The notes under the pieces are model-generated. The model saw only the letters and a list, made by a program, of their open reading frames with translations, was not told the origin of the DNA and did no database searches. A stretch of DNA of 64,000 bases, from positions 1 to 64,000 of the IMG/VR virus record IMGVR_UViG_2795385844_000002, one strand, 5' to 3'. Positions 8,616 to 18,412 of this stretch are shown piece by piece. Position 1 is the stretch's first letter, and the number at the start of each line of letters is the position of its first letter. Source of the DNA: a virus (taxonomy: Duplodnaviria; Heunggongvirae; Uroviricota; Caudoviricetes). The position numbers were made by a program, and so were the translations under genes.

Positions 8616-9448
8616 TCGATCACCTCAGTGAATGGCCCGAATCGCTCTTCGAGCAGACCTATGGAGCGCAAGGTGTACCACTCCTCGTCCCCAACCTTCG
8701 ACTTCCATGAACCCGAGCCGAACCTGTACCGACGCCCTACTAGGTCATCCACGGGACTCCACACGGTGCCGTCTCGGGCCTCTTCGCAATCCAGGCTCGG
8801 AAGTACACGGGGCTCAAGGATTTCGGTGTAAGGAGGCAGCGCGTCAGGTTCATAGGCATCCCCGTACAGATCACCGCCCAGGCCACCGCTCACCCATCGG
8901 GTGCCGTCGTGCCAGAACTCCAGCCCAGCACAGTTCCGCCACCGTGATCCCTGCTCGTCTACCCCTAGACGGTCAACGACACGGGGTTCCCGGTAGGGCT
9001 TGGGACGTCGTTCCTCCCAGTGCTGACGGATTTCGCCGCCCACATCTTCAGCAGTGCGCTCCGGTTCCTGTTGTGCTGTTGGGTCGGGCCGAGGCACAAT
9101 CGGCTCTTCGCCAGGTGGGAACCAATCCAACCCTACTTGTTCGGGCCACTCGTCGGGGCGGATCTGCGGCCAAGAGTCGGCGTCGTATTGGTTCTTTCGG
9201 GCAGGGGCATTCGGGTTCAGCTGGAAGTATTCCCAGAATGGTGCATCAAGACCCACTGTTCGGTGAGCAACCCACCCCCCGTCTGGTCGTCGTGCGATGG
9301 TGCCAACAGGTGCACCCTCGGGGATGCTGTTAGCGGCAGCGATGATCCGGTCTATGTACTCATCGGTGGTGTCCACCCGGCCCTGCCACTCATCAGCGGC
9401 CTCACCCATCGCTTTCCGCTGCGCTTCAGTCGGATTCAACACGTTCAC
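8612..9448 (-). CDS. hypothetical protein (278 aa); C-terminal domain paralogous to the product of 35743..36234
   Basis: Shared C-terminal pattern LDC(D/E)EARDG(T/A)VW...YRF..G.W...EVI. Confidence 0.6.
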   Translation of the reverse strand: MNVLNPTEAQRKAMGEAADEWQGRVDTTDEYIDRIIAAANSIPEGAPVGTIARRPDGGWVAHRTVGLDAPFWEYFQLNPNAPARKNQYDADSWPQIRPDEWPEQVGLDWFPPGEEPIVPRPDPTAQQEPERTAEDVGGEIRQHWEERRPKPYREPRVVDRLGVDEQGSRWRNCAGLEFWHDGTRWVSGGLGGDLYGDAYEPDALPPYTEILEPRVLPSLDCEEARDGTVWSPVDDLVGRRYRFGSGSWKSKVGDEEWYTLRSIGLLEERFGPFTEVIE

Positions 9449-10134
9449 CAGCCAAACTCCCTTGGTACATAGACTTGGTTCTGCGGTCGGATGAAGTCCG
9501 AATCCGCTGGCGGTTGGTCAGATTCTGTGATGCGAATCAGCAGACGCCATCCACGTTCAGTAGCCTGCGACGCCTGGTGGATGTTCCACCAATCCCATGA
9601 ATACCAAACACTCTCTTGCGCAACCAGTTTCCGCAGGGTCGTGCAACCATCAATCCGGCGAGTTAATTCTGAATAAAGCTGTTCGTCTTCGTCGTGCTCA
9701 ATCGGCAGGTGCAGTAATCCATCAATGAACACAGTTGGGCAGTCGTTTCCAACGTGCAGCGTGTGGTAGCGCGGGTAATAGCCCTCAAGGGAACGGTAAT
9801 TCTGCAGCGGGAGGGACGGCGCGCCCCAATTCGCTGGGGTCAAGGTCTCGTCTGCCGCGCTGTAGCGCGGAACCCCATCGGTATGCCACCCGGGAATCGC
9901 AGGCCACCAACCGGGCATCAGCATAGAGACCTTGGTGTCCACGAAGATGTGCTTGTGGTCCCCAACAATTGGGGCTGACTGCAGGAGTCCGCGCAAGAGT
10001 GGACCTCCATAGAGCACAGCATTCGACAGGCTCGCACGGCGCAGGTTCGGTGTCCCCTCGATTAAGCCAGAGGGATCTGAATACGCCTGGGGTCCAATGA
10101 CCACCGGGTTGCGGTTGAACCAATATGTGGTCAC
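9445..10134 (-). CDS. hypothetical protein (229 aa)
   Basis: ORF track; tight overlap with neighbours. Confidence 0.55.
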   Translation of the reverse strand: MTTYWFNRNPVVIGPQAYSDPSGLIEGTPNLRRASLSNAVLYGGPLLRGLLQSAPIVGDHKHIFVDTKVSMLMPGWWPAIPGWHTDGVPRYSAADETLTPANWGAPSLPLQNYRSLEGYYPRYHTLHVGNDCPTVFIDGLLHLPIEHDEDEQLYSELTRRIDGCTTLRKLVAQESVWYSWDWWNIHQASQATERGWRLLIRITESDQPPADSDFIRPQNQVYVPREFGW

Positions 10135-10481
10135 AGTAGCTTCAACTCCCCCGTGATCGGAGCGAGCTCTTCAGCCGTTGCAGGTCCAATAGCGCAACAC
10201 GTGGTCGTCAAGATGCCATGGAATTCGGTCTTCCCGTTATCCGTGATCAGTGCGTTCGGGAGGTTGGCTTTAATTGCCTTGCCCCAAAGGTCAATCAGGG
10301 CGTCTTCGCTCTCCACCCGTACGCAGACCTTCGTGAACGAACCCGCGAGCCACTCGACCACACGTGGGTCGTCGCGGTACTCGAGAACGGCCCCCAGAGA
10401 GGCGTGAGCACCCTGCGAAACCATCTTCCCGGCACGCATGCCGAGATCCTTACGCATGACGATTACCTGCTTCAGTCCCAT
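10131..10481 (-). CDS. pth2: peptidyl-tRNA hydrolase, PTH2 family
   Basis: 116 aa with a QGAHAS motif and PTH2-like fold signature. Confidence 0.8.
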   Translation of the reverse strand: MGLKQVIVMRKDLGMRAGKMVSQGAHASLGAVLEYRDDPRVVEWLAGSFTKVCVRVESEDALIDLWGKAIKANLPNALITDNGKTEFHGILTTTCCAIGPATAEELAPITGELKLL

Positions 10482-10684
10482 GGAATCAGTCCTGCGCTAT
10501 TCAGACGCTTCAGGCATGCGGCCATCTCCCGCAAACTGATGGGTTCCACAATGTCCTTGGCGTCTTCGGTAATGTGGCAGATCTCGCTCTGCTCCTCGAA
10601 GCAGATCAGTAGGATCTCTTCCAGATTGAGCTCCTCCAGATCACTCACTGTCGTACACCTCTCCCATGATCTGAGCGCCGTCAT
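10472..10684 (-). CDS. hypothetical acidic protein (70 aa)
   Basis: ORF track. Confidence 0.45.
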   Translation of the reverse strand: MTALRSWERCTTVSDLEELNLEEILLICFEEQSEICHITEDAKDIVEPISLREMAACLKRLNSAGLIPWD

Positions 10685-10764
10685 AGACGGTCACCGGGTC
10701 GTAGTCGCATGCCGAATCGCGGTACCCCTTGCCTGGGATCACCGGGTACTTCTCAAACCAGAAC

Positions 10765-11277
10765 TCACCGTGCAAGAGCGCACGGTCCAGTGTGTGGGTC
10801 GACGTGGTAACTGGCTGGTGGTGAACATAGCGGGCCGCTGTAGCCGAAATTGGTAACCGAGATCCCCGCGCGCTCTGCTCGCTTCATGCAATCCCAGGTA
10901 CCGCGTGAATCCTTCAACGGGAAGGCGATACACGTATCGGCACCACGGTCGACCATCTCCTGGTTTCGCAGGTGCCCAGCGACCGGGCAATAGCGAGTAC
11001 CGTTCTTCCACCGAACGGCATGAGTGCAGTGCTGGTCGCAGTCTCGGTACCAGTCCGCAGGAACGCCCTCGTTCATTACCGGAAAGCCCTTAGCCATCGC
11101 TTCGTCGGCCCACTGCGATGCGAACAGGTCAGCACCGCTCGGGCACTCCCCCTGCACCACAACGAGATCGCCCTGGCCGCGCTTCCCTGCAATCGCAAGC
11201 TGGGCATTCAGAGCGGAACGTACGAACTTGCGGGACGGCCAGGCCCGACTACCTGTAACCAGAACGCGGCGCGTCAT
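10765..11277 (-). CDS. DUF2493 / SLOG-family (DprA-like Rossmann) protein
   Basis: N-terminal VLVTGSRAW motif typical of DUF2493. Confidence 0.5.
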   Translation of the reverse strand: MTRRVLVTGSRAWPSRKFVRSALNAQLAIAGKRGQGDLVVVQGECPSGADLFASQWADEAMAKGFPVMNEGVPADWYRDCDQHCTHAVRWKNGTRYCPVAGHLRNQEMVDRGADTCIAFPLKDSRGTWDCMKRAERAGISVTNFGYSGPLCSPPASYHVDPHTGPCALAR

Positions 11278-11372
11278 AGCAAGGCACCCACAACTGTCAC
11301 CAATAGGCCGATCACCGCAACGACCATCGCAACCGGCAATAGTGTCAGCGGCAGGTCATAGACCAAACCCAT
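11274..11372 (-). CDS. tiny membrane peptide (32 aa)
   Basis: Internal ATG of a longer low-complexity ORF; hydrophobic; ATGA overlap with the 10765..11277 start. Confidence 0.3.
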   Translation of the reverse strand: MGLVYDLPLTLLPVAMVVAVIGLLVTVVGALL

Positions 11373-11431
11373 GACGCACATTCCTGACGGAACCCCTACG
11401 AGTACGCCCGACCAGTATGGAACGAGAGGGT

Positions 11432-11542
11432 TCAATGCCCCCACCTCAGCTCCATCAGAGTCGGGAAGATTAGGACCAGGATGACCACGAGCCCACCCAT
11501 CGCCAGTGACACGTACCAAGCCCAATCGTCCAGGCGCTTCAT
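11432..11542 (-). CDS. tiny membrane peptide (36 aa)
   Basis: MKRLDDWAWYVSLAMGGLVVILVLIFP...; ATGA overlap with the upstream gene. Confidence 0.3.
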   Translation of the reverse strand: MKRLDDWAWYVSLAMGGLVVILVLIFPTLMELRWGH

Positions 11543-11838
11543 AGCTTCTCCAGCTTGTAGGTTGAAAGAACCTTCCTGATCGCGCCTGGATAAGTCCACC
11601 CCTGTCCGGTCTCCTCTTCCACGGCGGCAATGAAGGCCTTCTCGACAGCCTCCTGCTCCTCAAGTGCCTGGTAAGTCTCAGCACGCTCTCCGAGCCATAG
11701 CGCGACCTCTCGGATTCGGTCCGTGCCTGGACTAGATGGGCCGGAAGAAATCCCGCGCCATATAATGTCGCGCGCGAACAAAATCATTTCCGGCGTGACA
11801 GTCGGAATCCTCTCGAAGTCATAGGGATTCGATGTCAT
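11539..11838 (-). CDS. hypothetical protein (99 aa)
   Basis: ORF track. Confidence 0.5.
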   Translation of the reverse strand: MTSNPYDFERIPTVTPEMILFARDIIWRGISSGPSSPGTDRIREVALWLGERAETYQALEEQEAVEKAFIAAVEEETGQGWTYPGAIRKVLSTYKLEKL

Positions 11839-11948
11839 GCCTGACGCTCCAGCTTGATGTTCTCAATCAGCTCCGCTACCGACGCTACGAAGTCAACGAC
11901 GCTCAGGGCGACGATTGTGATGCTCAAGTACTTTCTGAATTCCTTCAT
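11835..11948 (-). CDS. tiny membrane peptide (37 aa)
   Basis: MKEFRKYLSITIVALSVVDFVASV...; ATGA overlaps on both sides. Confidence 0.3.
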   Translation of the reverse strand: MKEFRKYLSITIVALSVVDFVASVAELIENIKLERQA

Positions 11949-11988
11949 ATACCAATGCTATTGAGCGATTCTGGGTTCATGTGGGTAC

Positions 11989-12017
11989 GAAAAAAGCCCC
12001 CAGCTTTCGCTGAGGGC
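11989..12017 (-). terminator. rho-independent terminator (minus strand) at the downstream end of the tRNA array
   Basis: GC hairpin GCCCCCAGC/GCTGAGGGC followed on the minus strand by UUUUUU. Confidence 0.5.
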
Positions 12018-12025
12018 TCTTCGAG

Positions 12026-12099
12026 TAGTCCATGCGGGAATCAAACCCGCACCAACACCTTGAAAAGAGGGTGGTGTGCTCTCACTACACCAATGGACC
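12026..12099 (-). tRNA. tRNA-like element, non-canonical (T-loop TTTGATT, anticodon arm does not fold)
   Basis: Acceptor GGTCCAT/ATGGACT, D-arm GTGT..GCAC and a perfect T-stem GCGGG/CCCGC, but no 5-bp anticodon stem; contains TTTTCAA. Confidence 0.3.
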
Positions 12100-12105
12100 T
12101 TAGGG

Positions 12106-12444
12106 CTATTGCTCAACCCACTTGCCGGATTCGCGAACCTCAGTCTTGAGGTTCACCGGCCACATATCGCGCTCAACCTGGGCCCGCTGCAGCTCCTCAC
12201 GACCGACCTGACGCTTCACCCATAGTTGGAACTTCGGTGAGTTCGCCATACGCCTGAATGCAGACTGCTTGTTCTGCAGCTGGCTACGCTCCTCGCGCGA
12301 CTCACCCACCGCGCCAGAAGGCTCATGCGTGATCCGCACACCCGTCTCGCGCTTGTTCTGGTTTTGACCGCCCTTGCCCCCGGCTCGGAACGTGTCTACG
12401 CGACAATCCGAGAGGGTGACGGACAGTACTCGTTCTCTACTCAC
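12106..12444 (-). CDS. arfB: ArfB/ICT1-like GGQ-domain peptidyl-tRNA hydrolase (class I release factor domain)
   Basis: RAGGKGGQNQNKRETGVRITHEPSG matches the GGQ motif region of RF1-domain proteins; basic C-terminal tail. Confidence 0.75.
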   Translation of the reverse strand: MSRERVLSVTLSDCRVDTFRAGGKGGQNQNKRETGVRITHEPSGAVGESREERSQLQNKQSAFRRMANSPKFQLWVKRQVGREELQRAQVERDMWPVNLKTEVRESGKWVEQ

Positions 12445-12445
12445 G

Positions 12446-12519
12446 TCAAGTCGACCGGATTTGAACCGGCGTCCCCCGCCGTGACAGGGCGGTGCTTTAG
12501 ACCTCTAAGCTACGACTCG
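12446..12519 (-). tRNA. tRNA-Asp (GTC)
   Basis: Full cloverleaf: acceptor CGAGTCG/CGACTTG, D GCTT/AAGC, anticodon stem CCGCC/GGCGG with loop CTGTCAC, T-arm GCCGG-TTCAAAT-CCGGT. Confidence 0.8.
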
Positions 12520-12630
12520 ATAAGCCGTTTTCCGCGCGCCGGTTTTCGAGTCCGACGCGCCAGGGTGGACGGCACCCTGAGCCAACTTTCTGGGAATCAA
12601 ACCCTGGAGCTGCTTGGCCAAAACTCCCGT

Positions 12631-12703
12631 GGAGACGGTGCGAATTGAACGCGACCACACCAATCTTGCAAGGATCGGTCGCCACCTTGGAACATGCGCC
12701 CCC
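12631..12703 (-). pseudogene. degenerate tRNA-like sequence (anticodon arm resembles tRNA-Ala TGC)
   Basis: Good anticodon arm CGATC-CTTGCAA-GATTG but the T-stem and acceptor do not pair. Confidence 0.25.
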
Positions 12704-12704
12704 A

Positions 12705-12781
12705 TGGGGCCTCATCGAGGTCTCGAACCCCGCGCCTCTTCGTTACTAAGGAAGTGCTCTAGCCAGATGAGCTAATGAGGC
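12705..12781 (-). tRNA. tRNA with encoded CCA, anticodon loop TTAGTAA (AGT, Thr-like; isotype uncertain)
   Basis: Acceptor GCCTCAT/ATGAGGC then C-CCA; D GCTC/GAGC; T-arm CGGGG-TTCGAGA-CCTCG; 31:39 C.C mismatch. Confidence 0.6.
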
Positions 12782-12782
12782 C

Positions 12783-12856
12783 TGGTACCTTGCGAGAGAA
12801 TTGAACTCCCATCCTCGGGGTGTAAACCCGGTGCCCTTCCGTTGGACGAGCAAGGC
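12783..12856 (-). tRNA. tRNA-Val (TAC), CCA encoded
   Basis: Acceptor GCCTTGC/GCAAGGT then A-CCA; anticodon loop TTTACAC; T-arm GGGAG-TTCAATT-CTCTC. Confidence 0.7.
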
Positions 12857-12981
12857 ATATTGAGCTTTTGGTTGAGGGTGCCAATGCTGCAGCGAGAGGT
12901 CCCTGGCGGATGCTCTATCCGCGCCATACTTCCGGCGACAACCGAAGTCTCCACCGTAGGGTCGCCCATCCCAGGGCGTCG

Positions 12982-13056
12982 AACGAGTGACCAGATTCGA
13001 ACTGGCACGACCTGTTTGGAAGACAGGGATGCTAAACCGTTAAACATCACACTCGC
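12982..13056 (-). tRNA. tRNA-Gly (TCC)
   Basis: Acceptor GCGAGTG/CACTCGT; anticodon arm CCTGT-CTTCCAA-ACAGG; T-arm GCCAG-TTCGAAT-CTGGT. Confidence 0.75.
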
Positions 13057-13104
13057 TTGAGTATGCAGATCGTAGGCTTCAAGGGTACGAAATGCGTACT
13101 GTTG

Positions 13105-13175
13105 CACGACCGACAGGAGTTGAACCTGCTTCCACGCGGCTTAGGAGGCCGTTGGTCTGTCCGAGTTACAGTCGT
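13105..13175 (-). tRNA. tRNA-Arg (CCT), short D-arm
   Basis: Acceptor ACGACTG/CGGTCGT; anticodon loop CTCCTAA; T-arm GCAGG-TTCAACT-CCTGT. Confidence 0.45.
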
Positions 13176-13182
13176 AAGTTGG

Positions 13183-13254
13183 TAAGCCCGCAGTGAGTTG
13201 AACACTGGTTTCCGCCTTATCAGAGCGGTGTCCTAACCATTGGACGACGAGCTA
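13183..13254 (-). tRNA. tRNA-Ile (GAT)
   Basis: D GTCC/GGAC; anticodon arm CCGCT-CTGATAA-GGCGG; T-arm CAGTG-TTCAACT-CACTG; 1:72 mismatch. Confidence 0.6.
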
Positions 13255-13255
13255 G

Positions 13256-13327
13256 TGGGTCTGGTAGGACTCGAACCTACGTCTCCGACTTAAGAGGACG
13301 GAGCTAAACCATCTCAGCTACAAACCC
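13256..13327 (-). tRNA. tRNA-Lys (CTT)
   Basis: Acceptor GGGTTTG/CAGACCC; anticodon loop CTCTTAA; T-arm GTAGG-TTCGAGT-CCTAC. Confidence 0.55.
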
Positions 13328-13335
13328 ATTGTTGG

Positions 13336-13407
13336 TAGGGCGCAAGGGATTCGAACCCTCAACACGCGAGGTAAAAGCTCGGGGTGATTCCGTTTCACCA
13401 ACGCCCA
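13336..13407 (-). tRNA. tRNA-Lys (TTT)
   Basis: D GTGA/TCAC; anticodon arm CCGAG-CTTTTAC-CTCGC; T-arm GAGGG-TTCGAAT-CCCTT. Confidence 0.6.
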
Positions 13408-13410
13408 ATA

Positions 13411-13647
13411 TCAATTCATTGCCGGAAACGCCTCCCACACATGCGGATAAGCAGCGCGGTATGCGTCGCGACTGGAGCGGGTAAGAATTGTCGTCGGCTT
13501 ACACCCGATAACCACCAGCCCTTCCCTGCGCACCCTCTCCACCGCGAGCTCAGGAGTCATCCTCCTGCCGTACACAAACATCGTGCCGGTGGTCGTCTCG
13601 ACATCGAATACTTTCACGTAGTCGGCGCGAGGATCGAACTCGCACAC
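13411..13647 (-). CDS. hypothetical protein (78 aa) embedded in the tRNA array
   Basis: ORF track; GTG start; no strong RBS. Confidence 0.3.
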   Translation of the reverse strand: MCEFDPRADYVKVFDVETTTGTMFVYGRRMTPELAVERVRREGLVVIGCKPTTILTRSSRDAYRAAYPHVWEAFPAMN

Positions 13648-13751
13648 ACCGAGGTTTGAGCTCGGCGGCTTTGCCAGGTTTGCCTAGCCGACCATGCTCA
13701 GCATTTAACCGACCCGAGGCGGTCGGCACCCGTGAGGGCTGTTTGAACCGG

Positions 13752-13825
13752 TACTCCAAGAGGGATTCGAACCCACAACCTCCAGGGTCTAAGCCTGTCG
13801 CCTCTGCCAGTTGGGCTATTGGAGC
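13752..13825 (-). tRNA. type-I tRNA with anticodon TAG (Leu-codon CUA reader, short variable loop)
   Basis: Acceptor GCTCCAA/TTGGAGT, A73; anticodon loop CTTAGAC; T-arm GTGGG-TTCGAAT-CCCTC. Confidence 0.5.
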
Positions 13826-13882
13826 TTGGTGCCGATATTGCCGCGTCGGCTTTACGGTGACTCCTACTCACCGAGCGCGTCG

Positions 13883-13954
13883 AGACGAAGGCCGGGATCG
13901 AACCGGCGTGGGCCAGGGTTGCAGCCTGCCAGCTAGCCACTCACTCACTTCGCC
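13883..13954 (-). tRNA. tRNA-Cys (GCA)
   Basis: Acceptor GGCGAAG/CTTCGTC; anticodon arm GCAGG-CTGCAAC-CCTGG; perfect T-arm GCCGG-TTCGATC-CCGGC. Confidence 0.6.
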
Positions 13955-13962
13955 TTAAGCCG

Positions 13963-14127
13963 CTATTCTGCGGCGGGTGCTGCCTTCTTCGCTGGTGCCT
14001 TCTTGGCTACCGGCTTTTCTTCCACTGCGTAGTGGAAGTCCTCAAGGGTATCCATACGATCAATCAGGTCGTTTACCGCCTTGACGATGTCGATATGGGC
14101 GATGCCCGTGCGCAGCTTGTCAGTCAT
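13963..14127 (-). CDS. small hypothetical protein (54 aa) within the tRNA array
   Basis: ATG at 14127; product MTDKLRTGIAHIDIVKAVNDL...KKAPAKKAAPAAE. Confidence 0.4.
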   Translation of the reverse strand: MTDKLRTGIAHIDIVKAVNDLIDRMDTLEDFHYAVEEKPVAKKAPAKKAAPAAE

Positions 14128-14150
14128 ATTGGCCTTTCGGTGTCTGTACG

Positions 14151-14221
14151 TCCCCGTGCGCGGAGTTGAACCGCGATAACCTCGGTCACAGCGAGGGGCT
14201 CTGCCATTGAGCTACACAAGG
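14151..14221 (-). tRNA. tRNA-His (GTG)
   Basis: Acceptor CCTTGTG/CACGGGG; D GCTC/GAGC; anticodon arm CCTCG-CTGTGAC-CGAGG; T-arm CGCGG-TTCAACT-CCGCG. Confidence 0.8.
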
Positions 14222-14285
14222 TATGGCGCTGGCCAGAGCAGCATGGCATCTCTGTTTCTTCGGGCTTTGTACCGGCAGCGCTAAG

Positions 14286-14360
14286 ACCCGTTGACAGGAT
14301 TCGAACCTGCATGCGTTGCGCCTTCGTAGGGCGGTGGGCGCTCCATTGCCCAACAACGGG
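14286..14360 (-). tRNA. tRNA-Arg (ACG)
   Basis: Acceptor CCCGTTG/CAACGGG; D GGGC/GCCC; anticodon loop CTACGAA; T-arm GCAGG-TTCGAAT-CCTGT. Confidence 0.65.
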
Positions 14361-14372
14361 AGCAGGCGGTTT

Positions 14373-14388
14373 AACGTGGAGTGCCCAG
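14373..14388. repeat. 16-bp direct repeat ACGTGGAGTGCCCAGC, copy 1 (inside tRNA array)
   Basis: Identical 16-mer again at 14644..14659. Confidence 0.6.
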
Positions 14389-14498
14389 CACGGAGCAGTT
14401 TTTCGTGATGTCTCAACACGGATGGTTCTTCCAGTTGTGAACCAACAACATTCATGAGCCAGTTTCTACCTCAGCCGTGTACTGGCAACCCTCGTCCG

Positions 14499-14573
14499 TG
14501 GCGGGTACCGGATTTGAACCGGTGGTCTCAAGGTTATGAGCCTTGCGAGATGGCCGAGCTTCTCTAACCCGCT
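14499..14573 (-). tRNA. tRNA-Met (CAT)
   Basis: D GAGA/TCTC; anticodon arm CAAGG-CTCATAA-CCTTG; perfect T-arm ACCGG-TTCAAAT-CCGGT; 1:72 A.C mismatch. Confidence 0.7.
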
Positions 14574-14643
14574 ATGTATGGTGACTCATTCCGACAGGAC
14601 AGTTCGTCGCCTACCGTATCCGCGCGAGTCAACGCGACCTTTT

Positions 14644-14659
14644 ACGTGGAGTGCCCAGC
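14644..14659. repeat. 16-bp direct repeat ACGTGGAGTGCCCAGC, copy 2
   Basis: Identical to 14373..14388. Confidence 0.6.
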
Positions 14660-14698
14660 TTTTCACCAGTAGCTGCGGAACCTGGTTTCCCTTACACG

Positions 14699-14772
14699 CC
14701 GACTCTCCCCGAATCGAACGGGGGCGCACCGGGCTTCAACCGGTCGCTCTTACCTAACTGAGCTAAGAGTCG
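14699..14772 (-). tRNA. tRNA-Phe (GAA)
   Basis: Acceptor CGACTCT/AGAGTCG; D GCTC/GAGC; anticodon arm ACCGG-TTGAAGC-CCGGT; T-arm CCCCG-TTCGATT-CGGGG. Confidence 0.85.
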
Positions 14773-15066
14773 ATTGTTAGAGGCTGAGAGTACACCCGCT
14801 ATCGAGAACCTTTCGCAGCATTATGGATTCGCTGCTTCTCCAGGCCATCCCTGACCTAGTTCTCACGCCTGGTCCGTTACCGTGAACCACTCGTTATGCC
14901 GAAAGCTACTCTGCGGCTTTCCCTTCGCGATGAGATGGCCGTCTCACTGCTGCAGTACTTGCCTACAAACCGCACTCACCTTGCGGGACTATTGTGCGGC
15001 CCAGATTCCCGAGGGTCTGGGATTAAGGCGCTTTTGCTCCTCGGCAGGGGAAGGACTTTTGCTTTT

Positions 15067-15138
15067 AATTGACGACGGGACTTGAACCCGCACATCCAGT
15101 TTCCAATAACTGGTGACCTACCGTTGGTCTACGTCATT
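15067..15138 (-). tRNA. tRNA with 8-nt anticodon loop TATTGGAA (Gln-TTG or Pro-TGG-like; possible quadruplet or frameshift decoder)
   Basis: Good D (GACC/GGTC) and T arms; anticodon arm CCAGT-TATTGGAA-ACTGG is 18 nt instead of the usual 17. Confidence 0.5.
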
Positions 15139-15592
15139 CTCACAGCGGAGAATGATTTGACTAGAGACGTGCTTCCCCATGAAGTTCCGAACCCTTTTGG
15201 GGCACAGAATGCTTCACGCCTCTCGTGCTTTCGCCTGGCGGGGCTAATTACACTCTCTCTCAACCACATTGCGAGCCGTCGCCCGACGCGAGATCGATCA
15301 TGGAACACGCCCTTGCTTGCGAGGCTCGGACTCAGTTCCTTCCGTTCCACAGGGCGCTCGTTCAATAGCCTTTTCACACGCACGTACGTGATGGTGTCCT
15401 CAGCACTTTGCCGTTGGACGGGGCGTAACTCGCAACCTGGCAGCCATCTCTGACTGCTCAAGGATTGGATTGCATGGATTGCCCTTGCGGGTGGTGGGTT
15501 GTCACCCCACCTTTCACCACCTTGCGGTGGCTTATGGGCCATACCCCGAATGTCTTAACTATATCTCCCACAACAGAGTTCGTGTGGGTGAG

Positions 15593-15675
15593 CGGAGAGG
15601 CAGGTATTCGAAACCTACTGCGAACAGCGCTCCGGTTAGCAACCGGGCCTAGTCACCTAACTAGTTGCGCTCTCC
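15593..15675 (-). tRNA. tRNA-Ser (GCT), type II
   Basis: 83 nt; anticodon loop TTGCTAA; long variable arm GCGCTGTTCGCAG; T-arm TAGGT-TTCGAAT-ACCTG. Confidence 0.6.
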
Positions 15676-15754
15676 ATGGTCCACCATTTCAGCACTGACG
15701 CGATCTTCAGTGCACCTGTTCAGCCACCGTTCAGGCAGGTGGAAGTCTTTAGAG

Positions 15755-15839
15755 CGGAAAGTCGAGGAATCGAACCCCCAGGACGCACTGCCTGCCCCGG
15801 TATTCGACGCCGGTTGCCGACCATTCAGCGGGACCTTCC
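15755..15839 (-). tRNA. putative type-II tRNA (Ser-CGA-like), low confidence
   Basis: 85 nt; acceptor GGAAGGT/ACTTTCC; T-loop TTCGATT; anticodon region GTCGAAT; imperfect stems. Confidence 0.35.
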
Positions 15840-15921
15840 ATCGCCCCAGAATTCATGACGCAGCCTGGCGCACACTGCGGACAGCCAACTCGTGGCAGGT
15901 ACCTACCGGTTGACCCTAAAG

Positions 15922-15993
15922 CTGAAGACCCTGGATTCGAACCAAGAACTGCGACGTTCAGAGCGTCGTGTGTTGCCGTTACACCAATCTTCA
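15922..15993 (-). tRNA. tRNA-Gln (CTG)
   Basis: D GTGT/ACAC; anticodon arm CGACG-CTCTGAA-CGTCG; T-arm CTTGG-TTCGAAT-CCAGG. Confidence 0.75.
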
Positions 15994-16072
15994 ATGCTGA
16001 GACTGGCCTTGCGGGCGGGGGAACGTTTCTGCTTGCCGCAAGCCTTCAGTTCGTTCCACACCAGTCTCATTG

Positions 16073-16150
16073 TCTCGCCGTCAGGAGTCGAACCTGCACA
16101 CCCGAAGGAGCAGATTTACAGTCTGCGTTGATCGCCTATTCGCGACGAGA
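16073..16150 (-). tRNA. tRNA-Tyr (GTA), type II
   Basis: Anticodon arm GCAGA-CTGTAAA-TCTGC; variable arm TCCTTCGGGTGT; acceptor CTCGTCG/CGGCGAG. Confidence 0.6.
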
Positions 16151-16201
16151 TTGGAGCCAGTGCTCGGCTTCTCGCCGATTCGCATGCACACACTGACATG
16201 G

Positions 16202-16274
16202 CTGGCTTGGAAGGATTCGAACCTACACCTCGCGAGTTAACAGCTCGCTGCTCTACCAATTGAGCTACAGGCCA
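16202..16274 (-). tRNA. tRNA-Asn (GTT)
   Basis: Canonical TAGCTCAATTGGTAGAGC D-arm; anticodon arm GCGAG-CTGTTAA-CTCGC; T-arm GTAGG-TTCGAAT-CCTTC. Confidence 0.8.
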
Positions 16275-16393
16275 AGGGCGAGGGTGGCCAGTGTCAGCGC
16301 GCTTTCTGACCTGTGCGACCCTCTTGCCCGTCCTGCTTAGAGATGAGACGGAGCCGAAAACACCCGTACGGTCATCGTACGTGATGACGAACG

Positions 16394-16469
16394 TCTGCCA
16401 GGCGCGATTTGAACACGCGATCTCCTGGACCCAAACCAGGCGGGATGGCCAAACTTCCCTACAAGCAGA
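16394..16469 (-). tRNA. tRNA-Pro (TGG)
   Basis: D GGGA/TCCC; anticodon arm CCTGG-TTTGGGT-CCAGG; T-arm GCGTG-TTCAAAT-CGCGC. Confidence 0.75.
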
Positions 16470-16711
16470 TGATGGACGACACGGCCCAGGTACGGCACCT
16501 CAGGTCGGATCCTTTTTGTCGGAACCTACTGCGGGATTACCCTGCCATCCATGTGACCATCAGCATCCCGATGGCCGCGCGGAGATGTCTCTCCACATTC
16601 CCCGTACGACCGACGCTTTCCTGGAGCTACCTGTACTTGCGTATATGGTCTGACAGCCGGGGCCACACTGACTAACGAGGATGTTCTCCCTTTGCACTAC
16701 CGGCAGCCTAC

Positions 16712-16736
16712 GCCGCCAGTCGGGGCTCGAACCCGA
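16712..16736 (-). other. orphan T-arm/acceptor-like hairpin immediately 3' of the tmRNA (possible processing signal, terminator or tRNA remnant)
   Basis: Perfect TCGGG-TTCGAGC-CCCGA hairpin plus CTGGCGG, but no upstream tRNA body. Confidence 0.3.
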
Positions 16737-16748
16737 ATCTTCCTCTCG

Positions 16749-17102
16749 TGGAGCTGCCCGGAATTGAACCGGGATGTTACGTGACTTGTCACAGTCTTCT
16801 ACGTGCGTAGTCCACCGATTGGGTCGGTTGGGGTGGACGCCTGTCCGAATCGAGACCTCAGACTCTCGACCGATCTTCCAGCACAGTTTGTCGCCTGAGA
16901 GCTGGTCATTGCGAGTTCCCCGTATTCGCGACGGTGGATTGGTACACGGAACGGGTAAACCGTTGTACCCCACCGGACTACGCAGCTAGGGCGTAGTCGG
17001 ACTGAGCAGAAGCTGCAGTTATTGTGGTTGCACTGTTACGGGCGTTGCATGCCCGGCACGCTTCTCAGTAAGTTGACACGCAATCGAATACCTGTCAGCC
17101 CC
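16749..17102 (-). ncRNA. ssrA: tmRNA (ssrA), about 354 nt, tag peptide AASAQSDYALAA
   Basis: 5' GGGGCUGACAGGUAUUCGAUUG (compare E. coli GGGGCUGAUUCUGGAUUCGAC); 3' CCCGG-UUCAAUU-CCGGG-CAGCUCCA with a G3:U70 and A73 Ala-identity acceptor; internal ORF GCA GCU UCU GCU CAG UCC GAC UAC GCC CUA GCU GCG UAG. Confidence 0.85.
16978..17016 (-). other. tmRNA tag-peptide reading frame (AASAQSDYALAA, stop UAG)
   Basis: Preceded by AAUAACU (compare E. coli AAUAGUC); ends in the classic ...YALAA degron. Confidence 0.75.
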
Positions 17103-17159
17103 ATTGAAGTATCTATATCTCTATGGAGTTTTCAAATGTCATGCCACACAAAGGCATTG

Positions 17160-17230
17160 CCCGGATGGAGAGAATCGAACTCCCGTTGGCGGGTTTGGAA
17201 GCCGCTGTCCTGCCACTGGACCACATCCGA
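17160..17230 (-). tRNA. tRNA-Trp (CCA)
   Basis: D GTCC/GGAC; anticodon loop TTCCAAA; T-arm GGGAG-TTCGATT-CTCTC; acceptor TCGGATG/CATCCGG. Confidence 0.65.
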
Positions 17231-17304
17231 ATTTCCAGATTTTCAGGCCCTGGTAGCCCCTCTTGCTGAACTAAGTCTACGACCCACCCACATGAACCCC
17301 TAGC

Positions 17305-17344
17305 GAATAAAAACGGGCCCCGATCCATTGAGGAACCGGGGCCC
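17305..17344 (-). terminator. rho-independent terminator (minus strand) upstream of the tRNA/tmRNA array
   Basis: 7-bp GC stem GGGCCCC/GGGGCCC followed on the minus strand by GUUUUUAUU. Confidence 0.55.
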
Positions 17345-17364
17345 AACGTCGAGAAAGCCTACGC

Positions 17365-17622: not shown

Positions 17623-17985
17623 CTATTCCCGCCAGTTCCTTGACGTGGGATGTTTGACCTTCTTCTTCGCCTTCCCGCCTCGACGCTGATTGCAAACCAG
17701 GTGGCAGGGAACGAGATTCGAAACGTCGTAGCAGAGTGGGTCATCCCAGGCGAGATCTTTCACGGGGATGATGTGGTCTACGGTCGCGCTCATCGGGTCA
17801 GGCCATTTGAGGTTCAGGTCAATGAACTCGTGACACTGGTCGCAGATCTGACTGGCTCGCAAAACACGCGCCTTTGCCTTCTCGAACCTTACCCCGGTTC
17901 GCCCCAGGGAGCGAGGGCCTTTCGTTGAGCTGGTGGGCAAGTAAGTAGTCCTTCGCGCGCGTGAGCATTTCGACAGAGTCGTCAA
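17623..17985 (-). CDS. HNH endonuclease
   Basis: CDQC...DHIIPV...N...H HNH motif; the N-terminus overlaps the upstream EndoVII gene, so the start is uncertain. Confidence 0.55.
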   Translation of the reverse strand: MTTLSKCSRARRTTYLPTSSTKGPRSLGRTGVRFEKAKARVLRASQICDQCHEFIDLNLKWPDPMSATVDHIIPVKDLAWDDPLCYDVSNLVPCHLVCNQRRGGKAKKKVKHPTSRNWRE

Positions 17986-18412
17986 ACAGACCTAATGCCG
18001 TGTTGCAGGTCTTGCATAGAAGGCCACGGATGCATCTGCCGCAGCTCTTATTTGCTGCGCAGCAGGTGTGATCATGATCAACGCAGATCTTCCCATCCAG
18101 CAGCTCGTCTGCGCATATAGCGCATCGCCCGCCCTGGTTGGACCTCATCTGCGTGAGATCATCTGGCGTTAGTCCAAACCGATAGAAGTAGGCGCGCGCC
18201 CGCATGCACCTCTTGCAGTGAGTTCGACGCTGACGCCCGTTGTGTCCGTGGTTGCCATAAAACTCAGAAACGGGTAGATGCTGCTTGCACCAATTGCACT
18301 GTCGGACCTCTGATACATCTGTCTCTAAATTCATTATCTCACTAATTTGGCCACGCTCACTGCGGCAACCCGGCCCATCCCTCAAGACGTACCAGACGGC
18401 GCTCAAGTTCAT
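17819..18412 (-). CDS. endonuclease VII-like (Endonuclease_7 domain) protein
   Basis: CAICAD...CVDHDHTCC...GRCIRGLLCKTCNTALG Zn-binding EndoVII signature. Confidence 0.6.
   Translation of the reverse strand: MNLSAVWYVLRDGPGCRSERGQISEIMNLETDVSEVRQCNWCKQHLPVSEFYGNHGHNGRQRRTHCKRCMRARAYFYRFGLTPDDLTQMRSNQGGRCAICADELLDGKICVDHDHTCCAANKSCGRCIRGLLCKTCNTALGLFDDSVEMLTRAKDYLLAHQLNERPSLPGANRGKVREGKGACFASQSDLRPVSRVH

Follow-up and report, generated by a model that had tools for sequence, protein, structure and literature searches.

A MabI-like prophage tRNA array of Mycobacteroides abscessus with tmRNA, GOLLD RNA and a stand-alone GGQ protein as a probable back-up decoding set

Why should a temperate phage carry a long series of tRNA genes together with a tmRNA, a GGQ-domain protein and a peptidyl-tRNA hydrolase, and what might these genes do for it? 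The question is raised by a stretch of viral DNA of 64,000 nucleotides (hereafter the window), in which the region of interest is the tRNA array unit, with adjoining early-lytic genes, of a temperate mycobacteriophage that resides as a prophage in Mycobacteroides abscessus; the phage type is cluster MabI of Dedrick et al., which is cluster-M-like. This identity follows from the 93-95% DNA identity and shared gene order between the window and the M. abscessus prophages prophiT49-2 and prophi86-1 (the latter a member of cluster MabI), from the annotations that the existing records of both carry for the array genes, and from the 100% identity of the GGQ protein with an NCBI M. abscessus protein; prophiGD54-2 is 88% identical to the window. 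The cassette is of a known kind, the mycobacteriophage tRNA-array translation cassette seen in the arrays of Mycobacterium prophages, cluster M and MabI (Pope 2014; Morgado & Vicente 2018, group G1; Dedrick 2021). Its genes have been read in terms of ribosome rescue and translational reprogramming (Morgado & Vicente 2018; Dedrick 2021), a ribosome-rescue function has been pointed out for the RF-1 domain, Pth and tmRNA genes of Mycobacterium tRNA arrays (PMC5966550), and it has already been proposed that such genes serve to maintain translation or act in counter-defence (PMC5966550, PMC8092301, PMC10264068). The original prediction suggested that same role; its components exist and may well be read in this way, but several of its specifics fail. 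Overall, what it observed was largely real and is partly confirmed, and its interpretation is partly supported.

The features are collected in Table 1. Between 12025 and 17230 ARAGORN called 21 tRNAs and one tmRNA, every one of them on the minus strand. Of the tRNAs 20 are canonical, a number far beyond chance on one strand within 5.2 kb. Rfam recovered 19 of the 20, no match at E<=0.01 being obtained for tRNA-Tyr(GTA), and a further Rfam match at 13105..13175 without an ARAGORN call is possibly a decayed tRNA. The claim of at least 21 tRNAs thus holds for 20, since the 21st (15066-15139) is non-canonical and lies inside a GOLLD RNA. The predicted tmRNA within the array was found by both programs (RF00023, 85.7 bits against a gathering score of 47, model positions 1-374). 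The array unit extends for ~5.3 kb on the minus strand, from 17345 to 11991, between two terminator-like hairpins, the upstream one (-25 kcal/mol, z -4.0) marking the 5′ boundary of the transcription unit and the downstream one (-25.7 kcal/mol, z -5.7) its end. It contains the 20 canonical tRNAs, the tmRNA, GOLLD with its tRNA-like insert, two small ORFs and the GGQ protein; the counterpart CDS of the 68-aa ORF in prophi86-1 adjoins its tRNA in the same way. One sigma-70-like site was found against 3.3 expected from shuffles.

Table 1. Features of the tRNA array unit and adjoining genes, in the order of minus-strand transcription
Feature	Position	Strand	Evidence or remark
Terminator-like hairpin, 13-bp stem then TTTTTATT, upstream of array	17314..17345	-	
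tRNA-Trp(CCA)	17159..17230	-	ARAGORN, Rfam
Sigma-70-like match TTGAAA-16-GATACT, just upstream of tmRNA	17108..17135	-	weak evidence
tmRNA, tag peptide AASAQSDYALAA	16746..17102	-	ARAGORN 16748-17102; RF00023
tRNA-Pro(TGG)	16393..16468	-	ARAGORN, Rfam
tRNA-Asn(GTT)	16199..16274	-	ARAGORN, Rfam
tRNA-Tyr(GTA), 78 nt	16072..16149	-	ARAGORN only; annotated in prophiT49-2
tRNA-Gln(CTG)	15921..15993	-	ARAGORN, Rfam
Conserved non-coding stretch directly 5′ of Rfam GOLLD match	15225..15546	-	
GOLLD RNA, conserved 3′ domain	14781..15224	-	Rfam RF02032, full model 1-416
tRNA-like insert inside GOLLD	15066..15139	-	ARAGORN
tRNA-Phe(GAA)	14698..14772	-	ARAGORN, Rfam
tRNA-Met(CAT)	14498..14573	-	ARAGORN, Rfam
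tRNA-Arg(ACG)	14285..14360	-	ARAGORN, Rfam
tRNA-His(GTG)	14150..14221	-	ARAGORN, Rfam
54-aa ORF between tRNA-His and tRNA-Cys	13963..14127	-	CDS in relatives; weak phrog_26843 match
tRNA-Cys(GCA)	13882..13954	-	ARAGORN, Rfam
tRNA-Leu(TAG), 76 nt, without long variable arm	13750..13825	-	ARAGORN, Rfam
tRNA-Leu(CAA), 76 nt, without long variable arm	13618..13693	-	ARAGORN, Rfam
68-aa ORF, GTG start adjoins tRNA-Leu(CAA) 3′ end	13411..13617	-	
tRNA-Lys(TTT)	13333..13407	-	ARAGORN, Rfam
tRNA-Lys(CTT)	13255..13327	-	ARAGORN, Rfam
tRNA-Ile(GAT)	13180..13254	-	ARAGORN, Rfam
Weak tRNA-like match	13105..13175	-	Rfam 28.9 bits, gathering score 29
tRNA-Gly(TCC)	12981..13056	-	ARAGORN, Rfam
tRNA-Val(TAC)	12783..12856	-	ARAGORN, Rfam
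tRNA-Thr(AGT)	12705..12781	-	ARAGORN, Rfam
tRNA-Asp(GTC), CCA not encoded	12445..12519	-	ARAGORN, Rfam
112-aa stand-alone GGQ protein ('mini-RF')	12106..12444	-	PF00472, phrog_3122
tRNA-Glu(TTC), begins 6 nt past GGQ-protein stop codon	12025..12099	-	ARAGORN, Rfam
Terminator-like hairpin, 14-bp stem, GAAA loop, U6, array-unit end	11991..12022	-	
SLOG/YAcAr-domain protein, 'DprA-like' in relatives' annotation	10765..11277	-	variable among relatives
PTH2-family peptidyl-tRNA hydrolase, archaeal/eukaryotic type	10131..10481	-	PF01981, TIGR00283, structures

GOLLD had been absent from the original list of features. Its conserved 3′ domain matched RF02032 with 196.1 bits against a gathering score of 150 (E 1e-54) and is ~99% identical in prophiT49-2 and prophi86-1, with diverging flanks. 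In mycobacteria GOLLD is known from tRNA clusters, where it contains a pseudo-tRNA (PMC6582537), and the RNA assembles into a 14-mer nanocage (PMC12286853); the present copy likewise matches at full length, lies in a tRNA island and carries a tRNA-like insert. The insert has a 5-bp acceptor stem, a 6-bp anticodon stem and a 6-nt anticodon loop, and is annotated in relatives as tRNA-OTHER or tRNA-Gln(ttg); its acceptor stem, its loop and its position within GOLLD led us to reject it as a canonical decoder. No noteworthy difference from GOLLD as described was seen; a conserved extension of ~320 nt on the 5′ side, outside the Rfam model, is probably the variable 5′ domain, so that GOLLD would reach to about 15546. 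This stretch is 73% identical in the divergent relative L009, where the next 370 nt upstream are unalignable, and its substitutions lack codon periodicity (27/31/27). A 137-aa ORF at 15129-15542 was discarded as spurious, being without codon periodicity and broken in four of five relatives.

The small GGQ protein had been described as ArfB/ICT1-like with a basic tail. Its GGQ motif is intact, and in the HMM check PF00472 was matched with 67.5 bits against a gathering score of 35; the NCBIfam models scored 69 bits for RF2, 64 for RF1 and 54 for PrfH. In the AlphaFold2 model (pLDDT 87) the C-terminal region is predicted to form a helix and a beta-hairpin, which are specific to the family and include the invariant W75 and W109. 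As judged from its sequence and this predicted fold, the protein is an isolated RF1/RF2-type domain 3, which in comparison with RF1/RF2 (and the mitochondrial mtRF1 and mtRF1a) lacks domain 1 and the codon-reading domains 2/4, the family-specific C-terminal element replacing the missing domains. Were it an ArfB-type non-stop rescue factor, its C-terminal tail would sense the empty mRNA channel and the peptide would be released, and its small size, its intact motif, its overall pI of 10.3 and a weak ArfB-model match in 47 of 52 family members agree with this. However, the ArfB model gave 25.5 bits against a cut-off of 100 and covered only residues 6-40 (the GGQ loop), BLASTP against E. coli ArfB aligned 34 residues, and no ArfB or ICT1 chain was among the PDB sequence matches. 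The last 30 residues carry a net charge of -2 against +9 in E. coli ArfB (+1 against +13 for the last 40), the mean for the C-terminal region across the family is -0.7, and the tail is predicted to be folded, with invariant Trp. On these grounds the reading is already disfavoured, and we regard it as very improbable. Both ArfB (YaeJ)/ICT1 and the present protein are small, codon-independent GGQ proteins, and their chemistry, peptidyl-tRNA hydrolysis at the peptidyl-transferase centre, would be expected to be alike; the phage protein differs in having a GGQ domain of RF1/RF2 type and in lacking the linker and the basic C-terminal tail. It is also set apart from mtRF-R/C12orf65, which goes with MTRES1, in that no S4-like or other conserved partner was found for the GGQ family.

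The protein might instead belong to a pair like PrfH and RtcB2, freeing peptides at jams caused by nuclease-damaged rRNA or tRNA that RtcB religates, with the ligase lost here. The PrfH match, however, covers only positions 105-180 of 200, which leaves out domain 2/4, the reader of the damaged decoding centre; both the RF2 and RF1 models outscore PrfH; and RtcB is encoded nowhere in the 64-kb window and lies near only 9 of 80 loci of the family. We consider this pairing improbable. The protein thus has neither the codon-reading domains of RF1, RF2 and PrfH nor the mRNA-channel tail of ArfB.

The predicted PTH2 was borne out by a full-length PF01981 match (E 1e-30) and by TIGR00283, which scored 94.7 bits (cut-off 82); solved archaeal Pth2 structures were likewise matched over the full length. 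Of the three rescue routes said to be covered, tmRNA and PTH2 are present and the ArfB-type one is unsupported; moreover, no SmpB homologue is encoded in the 64-kb window, so trans-translation is not self-contained. PTH2 lies in the next gene block, beyond the strong terminator hairpin that ends the array. The "module" originally proposed therefore has its components in place, but they do not share one unit, and in a survey of 80 viral GGQ loci, with tRNAs counted within 10 kb, PTH2 and the GGQ protein occurred together in only six, all close MabI-like relatives.

The GGQ family itself is large and mostly phage-borne, with relatives on 148 viral contigs. Clustering at 50% identity gives 150 clusters or more, and the best 150 of their representatives are all 82-216 aa long; most match the profile end to end, and G25, G26, H40, N58, W75 and W109 are invariant in 52 diverse members. 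Given this spread, the uniform size, the invariant residues, the pLDDT of 87 and the tRNA-rich loci, the gene is real and selected. At least five tRNAs lay within 10 kb in 25 of the 80 loci; about half of the homologues had none, and no protein neighbour conserved across the whole family was found, indicating that the function of the protein is not tied to tRNA arrays and that the "module" is lineage-specific. In the literature searched, no functional test of this small GGQ protein family was found.

The window shares with prophiT49-2 and prophi86-1 the tmRNA tag, PTH2, GOLLD and the position of the RF-1-domain gene between tRNA-Asp and tRNA-Glu. Compared with MabI and cluster M relatives it lacks RtcB, tRNA-Ala(TGC) and tRNA-Glu(CTC) and has tRNA-Glu(TTC) after the GGQ gene, which is ordinary within-cluster variation: tRNA-Ala, tRNA-Glu(CTC), tRNA-Tyr and tmRNA come and go among near-identical relatives, and this argues against all parts being essential. 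Could the locus then be a mosaic without coordinated function, a pile-up of mobile tRNA and small-gene cassettes that HNH homing endonucleases spread, with rescue genes side by side only by accident? HNH endonuclease genes are found beside or within the arrays, as also described in PMC5966550; relatives that are 88-98% identical differ in their tRNA, tmRNA, RtcB and SLOG genes; and the GGQ protein is often found without tRNAs. Against this, the array is tightly spaced on one strand with terminators at both flanks, GOLLD is conserved between diverging flanks, and late genes avoid codons without a phage tRNA (TTA, ATA, AGA and CAA account there for 0-4% of the codons of their amino acids). In addition, the GTG start of the GGQ gene directly follows the 3′ end of tRNA-Asp, a junction kept in relatives down to 73% protein identity. 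A purely incidental assembly accordingly seems distinctly improbable to us.

The 20 canonical tRNAs serve 18 amino acids, and since Ala and Ser are missing the set cannot be self-sufficient. The host is more GC-rich than the phage, at about 64% G+C against 57.6% for the window. Under strict wobble the array covers 62-68% of codons, and 81-82% if U34 and A34 are allowed to read all four codons of a box; nearly all codons left uncovered are those for Ala and Ser. The anticodons that serve four-codon boxes have U34 or A34, which read most broadly. The tRNAs had been proposed to include rare-codon readers and to supplement codons. In one form of this proposal they would read A/U-ending codons that the GC-richer host decodes poorly, and the rescue genes would do no more than mop up extra stalling. 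The lower G+C of the window, the many U34 anticodons that read A-ending codons and the 20-35% share of A/U-ending codons in several families of phage genes fit this proposal, and it has been argued likewise for cluster V phages (bioRxiv 10.64898/2026.06.26.734815). Yet the commonest codons are read as well, namely CAG (96% of Gln), AAG (91% of Lys), ATC, CGC and ACC, and the set extends to 18 amino acids, not to a handful of rare codons; in cluster C1 mycobacteriophages, codons that a phage tRNA matches were not found to differ in frequency from those without one (PMC10264068). Supplementation is hence the weaker reading, and we consider it unlikely. With its 18 amino acids and broad-wobble anticodons, the set looks like a near-complete back-up and not like a supplement for rare codons. 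A defence against anticodon nucleases of the host has been proposed as the role of phage tRNAs, Ser tRNAs being avoided (PMC10264068).

Together, we consider it probable that the array of this MabI-like prophage is a lytic back-up decoding set with tmRNA, GGQ protein and PTH2 as its rescue parts. During lytic growth the array would supply a near-complete decoding set, and phage translation would continue when the host's own tRNAs run short, as they would if anticodon nucleases or toxins of the host cleaved them. The GGQ protein, translated from an mRNA that probably has little or no leader because its start codon abuts tRNA-Asp, would most likely hydrolyse peptidyl-tRNA without reading a stop codon, and tmRNA with host SmpB, the GGQ protein and PTH2 may together clear the resulting stalled ribosomes and peptidyl-tRNAs.

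The window has a G+C content of about 57.6% and is phage DNA throughout. The region containing its minus-strand tRNA array is 95, 93 and 88% identical to the Mycobacterium abscessus prophages prophiT49-2, prophi86-1 (cluster MabI) and prophiGD54-2, respectively, and the cluster M phages Rey, Bongo and PegLeg are more distant relatives. Annotations for the tRNAs and the tmRNA, as well as for an 'RF-1 peptide chain release factor' and a peptidyl-tRNA hydrolase, already exist in unchanged order in the GenBank records of the sister prophages, which also list an RtcB-like ligase and a DprA-like protein. Morgado and Vicente listed the RF-1, Pth and tmRNA genes of Mycobacterium tRNA arrays as ribosome-rescue genes and found a structured RNA of ~430 nt in 81% of these arrays (PMC5966550), and Behra et al. 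described GOLLD with an internal pseudo-tRNA within a mycobacterial tRNA cluster (PMC6582537). The array unit of Morgado and Vicente comprises dense one-strand tRNAs, often with an RF-1-domain CDS, a tmRNA, a structured RNA and an HNH endonuclease; the window holds 20 tRNAs in 5.2 kb on one strand, which rules out a chance arrangement, and every listed accessory. Since GenBank contains near-identical prophages annotated in the same way, and rescue genes in arrays are an idea already in print, neither the module as such nor its general reading is new. The value of the analysis lies in a correction and a sharper question on the protein encoded between tRNA-Asp and tRNA-Glu (the GGQ protein).

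Features of the tRNA array and its flanks
Feature	Position (strand)	Support or remark
229-aa ORF	9445-10134 (-)	phrog_1843, actinophage family without Pfam hit
PTH2 gene	10131-10481 (-)	PF01981 positions 1-115 of 115, E 1e-30; TIGR00283 94.7 bits (above cut-off 82); NF003314 104.9 bits (below cut-off 126)
SLOG/YAcAr-domain gene	10765-11277 (-)	PF10686
Stretch corresponding to RtcB slot	11278-12024 (-)	
Hairpin 3' of tRNA-Glu	11991-12022	14 bp plus U-run, z -5.7
tRNA calls and tmRNA	12025-17230 (-)	ARAGORN
GGQ gene	12106-12444 (-)	PF00472 67.5 bits (gathering score 35)
Weak tRNA-like match	13105-13175 (-)	28.9 bits (gathering score 29)
68-aa ORF	13411-13617 (-)	
tRNA-Leu genes	13618-13693 and 13750-13825 (-)	76 nt each
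GOLLD RNA	14781-15224 (-)	RF02032 196.1 bits (gathering score 150), model positions 1-416 (full)
'tRNA-???'	15066-15139 (-)	inside GOLLD
137-aa ORF	15129-15542	rejected as a gene
Conserved non-coding stretch	15225-15546	320 nt, upstream of the Rfam match
tmRNA		RF00023 85.7 bits (gathering score 47), model positions 1-374; tag peptide AASAQSDYALAA
Hairpin 5' of tRNA-Trp	17314-17345	
HNH endonuclease gene and overlapping second Cys-rich ORF	17623-17985 and 17819-18412 (-)	PF01844 (HNH)

The original prediction, in which PTH2, an ArfB/ICT1-like GGQ protein with a basic tail, the tRNAs and the tmRNA form a translation-rescue module, was largely correct as an observation and partly supported as an interpretation: its components were recovered, but the ArfB-like identity and the basic tail were not. 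The 112-aa GGQ protein carries the motif quoted for it, with GGQ, the catalytic motif of ArfB/ICT1, at residues 25-27, and the RF-1 HMM matched well above its gathering score. Positions 223-288 of TIGR00020 were also matched, identifying the domain as RF1/RF2 domain 3, and the top fold matches were likewise of RF1/RF2 type. Among NCBIfam models RF2 (69 bits), RF1 (64 bits) and PrfH (54.3 bits) all scored higher than ArfB, which gave 25.5 bits over residues 6-40 only, against a cut-off of 100 bits (NF006718); neither by sequence nor by fold was an ArfB-type GGQ domain found. The RF2, RF1 and PrfH models matched all of 52 diverse family members and the ArfB model 47 of them, with a best E value (1e-11) far weaker than that of RF2 (1e-22) or PrfH (3e-20). 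A sequence search of the PDB returned RF1, RF2, mtRF1 and PrfH, ArfB/ICT1 being absent from the matches, and BLASTP against E. coli ArfB (sequence checked against PDB 4v95) aligned 34 residues around the GGQ loop. In an AlphaFold2 model of the GGQ protein (pLDDT 87), the sheet and helix of RF domain 3 are followed by another long helix and, at the terminus, a β-hairpin. The tail of ArfB is a flexible linker with a strongly basic C-terminus that occupies the empty mRNA channel; the C-terminal region of the GGQ protein is predicted to be folded, the net charge of its last 30 residues is -2 (E. coli ArfB, +9), and family members have a mean of -0.7 over the C-terminal region. RF1 and RF2 possess domain 1 and the stop-codon-reading domains 2/4 with their PxT or SPF motif, all of which the GGQ protein lacks; only ~66 of 353 RF profile positions were matched, with scores far below the cut-offs of 370-423 bits. 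PrfH, in turn, is a truncated release factor whose domain 2/4 recognises a damaged decoding centre. The PrfH model (TIGR03072, cut-off 166.65 bits) was matched over positions 105-180 of 200 only, and RtcB, the operon partner of PrfH, was absent by tblastn from the whole window but is present in the sister prophages. Judged by sequence and modelled fold, the 'release factor' of these phages belongs neither with ArfB nor with the codon-reading factors, and would consist of a lone RF1/RF2-type domain 3 whose cap, a helix plus a β-hairpin, is held by two invariant tryptophans.

Relatives of the GGQ protein were found on 148 viral contigs, and an NCBI M. abscessus entry is 100% identical to it. A profile search of 1.84 billion representatives gave best 150 hits (E up to 4e-26) that were all 82-216 aa long, most of them spanning the profile end to end. 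Across the 52 members (36-55% identity), the invariant residues are G25, G26, H40, N58, W75 and W109, with Q27 nearly invariant; in PHROGs the GGQ protein falls in phrog_3122. When genome contigs were scanned with the family alignment, mostly domain 3 of cellular RF1/RF2 was recovered, along with a single full-length relative, on a Peptococcaceae contig (L083), so that the scan was of little use for judging host range. From these sequence comparisons, the family is large and may represent a mostly phage-borne class of RF-derived enzyme. Literature searches found no functional study of any phage GGQ protein, and the survey of release-factor evolution by Burroughs and Aravind does not mention phage versions (PMC6514570).

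Co-occurrence was counted 10 kb either side of the GGQ gene in the best 80 viral loci. At least five tRNAs lay near the gene in 25 of the 80 and about half had none; because most phages carry few tRNAs, the association is clear. PTH2 was detected in this range only in six close relatives, and RtcB in nine of the 80 loci. No protein partner conserved across the family emerged in these loci when neighbouring ORFs (70 aa or longer, up to 6 kb away) were clustered, the outcome being just antisense shadow ORFs and lineage-specific neighbours. The module holds within the close MabI-like relatives and only loosely elsewhere. In prophiT49-2 and prophi86-1 the RtcB-like ligase follows the array (L001 3923-5161 and L002 3419-4651), in a variable slot, occupied in different relatives by RtcB alone, SLOG alone or the two together.

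ARAGORN called 21 tRNAs and one tmRNA, every one on the minus strand; of the 'at least 21' tRNAs predicted, 20 are canonical and the odd 21st sits within the GOLLD RNA. Rfam at a permissive threshold recovered 19 of the 20 canonical tRNAs, tRNA-Tyr being the exception. Together the 20 serve 18 amino acids, all except Ala and Ser, and in four-codon boxes they carry the broadest readers, U34 for Val, Gly, Pro and Leu and A34 for Thr and Arg. Computed for phage genes alone, on window ORFs no shorter than 150 aa, coverage by the set amounts to 62-68% of codons under strict wobble and rises to 81-82% when U34/A34 are allowed to read whole four-codon boxes; the uncovered codons are almost entirely those of Ala and Ser. 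Codons without a phage tRNA make up little of their own families in the late genes (41000-64000, minus strand), namely 0% for TTA, 1% for ATA, 1% for AGA and 4% for CAA, and are somewhat commoner in early genes. Such an 18-amino-acid, broad-reading set fits the codon supplementation originally proposed, in its rare-codon form, less well than it fits a near-complete back-up set, which reportedly has already been put forward for cluster M. The set is also consistent with the anti-nuclease hypothesis, since Ser tRNAs, whose avoidance it predicts (PMC10264068), are missing. Near-identical relatives differ in array content, with Ala(TGC), Glu(CTC), Tyr and tmRNA gained or lost. The HNH endonuclease gene just upstream of the array, overlapped by a second Cys-rich ORF, fits the literature proposal of homing-endonuclease-driven turnover of tRNA cassettes. 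Neither tRNA-Leu gene has the long variable arm usual in bacterial tRNA-Leu, and tRNA-Thr has the anticodon AGT, A34 being unusual except in tRNA-Arg(ACG). The weak tRNA-like match between tRNA-Gly and tRNA-Ile, not called by ARAGORN, may be a decayed tRNA. Because of the hairpins flanking tRNA-Glu and tRNA-Trp, the array looks from its sequence like a separate transcription unit, with PTH2 in the next block.

The GOLLD RNA within the array, overlooked in the original prediction, is ~99% identical across three prophages, with flanks of 88-95% identity. The stretch immediately upstream, which is non-coding and lies beyond the Rfam model, retains 73% identity even in a divergent relative, the next 370 nt being unalignable; it probably constitutes the variable 5' domain of GOLLD. 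The 137-aa ORF was rejected because its substitutions lack codon periodicity and it is broken in four of five relatives. The 'tRNA-???' element folds into a cloverleaf whose 5-bp acceptor stem and 6-nt (alternatively 8-nt) anticodon loop exclude it as a normal decoder; prophiT49-2 and prophi86-1 carry identical copies, labelled inconsistently as tRNA-OTHER or tRNA-Gln(ttg).

The predicted tmRNA was borne out by ARAGORN and by an Rfam score above the gathering threshold, and has both a tRNA-like domain and a tag reading frame. With E. coli SmpB as query (sequence checked against PDB 6q98), tblastn across the 64-kb window found no SmpB homologue (best E 2.9), and the phage tmRNA must therefore rely on host SmpB. 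The PTH2 assignment also stood, with a full-length domain match and an E value of 7e-23 against M. jannaschii Pth2 (PDB 2zv3). The SLOG/YAcAr-domain protein encoded between the array and PTH2 is called 'DprA-like' in relatives. SLOG domains are linked to nucleotide-based conflict systems. A 4-nt overlap joins the PTH2 stop codon to the 229-aa ORF, whose invariant residues include H84, D86, H124 and H186 and whose AlphaFold2 model (pLDDT 90.7) bears a weak resemblance to 2OG-Fe(II) oxygenases (Foldseek E 5e-4, TM ~0.4).

The GGQ gene begins at a GTG (12444) abutting the last base of tRNA-Asp (12445), a tRNA whose CCA is not encoded, and only 6 nt separate the stop codon of the gene from tRNA-Glu; seven relatives, with protein identities as low as 73%, retain the tRNA-Asp/GTG junction. 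Likewise, the GTG start of the 68-aa ORF abuts tRNA-Leu(CAA) at 13617/13618, as also annotated in prophi86-1. No Shine-Dalgarno sequence is visible for either gene. Since GTG starts abut tRNA 3' ends and leaderless mRNAs are translated efficiently in mycobacteria, this arrangement suggests that both genes have leaderless mRNAs, in that tRNA 3'-end processing would yield transcripts with little or no leader. If true, leader-free mRNA release at phage tRNA ends would give bacterial viruses a counterpart to mitochondrial tRNA punctuation.

Access of the GGQ protein to the ribosome, or its splitting of 50S-peptidyl-tRNA complexes, would follow a route other than an ArfB tail, PrfH-like recognition of the decoding centre or ArfA-type recruitment, and the protein may come into play when the translation apparatus is starved or damaged by host defences. 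That a distinct widespread class, a novel route to the ribosome and leaderless mRNA all hold jointly is a tentative proposal that we consider rather unlikely. The remaining interest is the stand-alone RF1/RF2-type GGQ family and its targeting, and the protein could show the minimal structure that delivers a GGQ loop to the peptidyl-transferase centre. As M. abscessus phages are in therapeutic use, determinants of host range and counter-defence are of practical interest, and the substrate of the GGQ protein could reveal how phages cope with translation-targeting defences.
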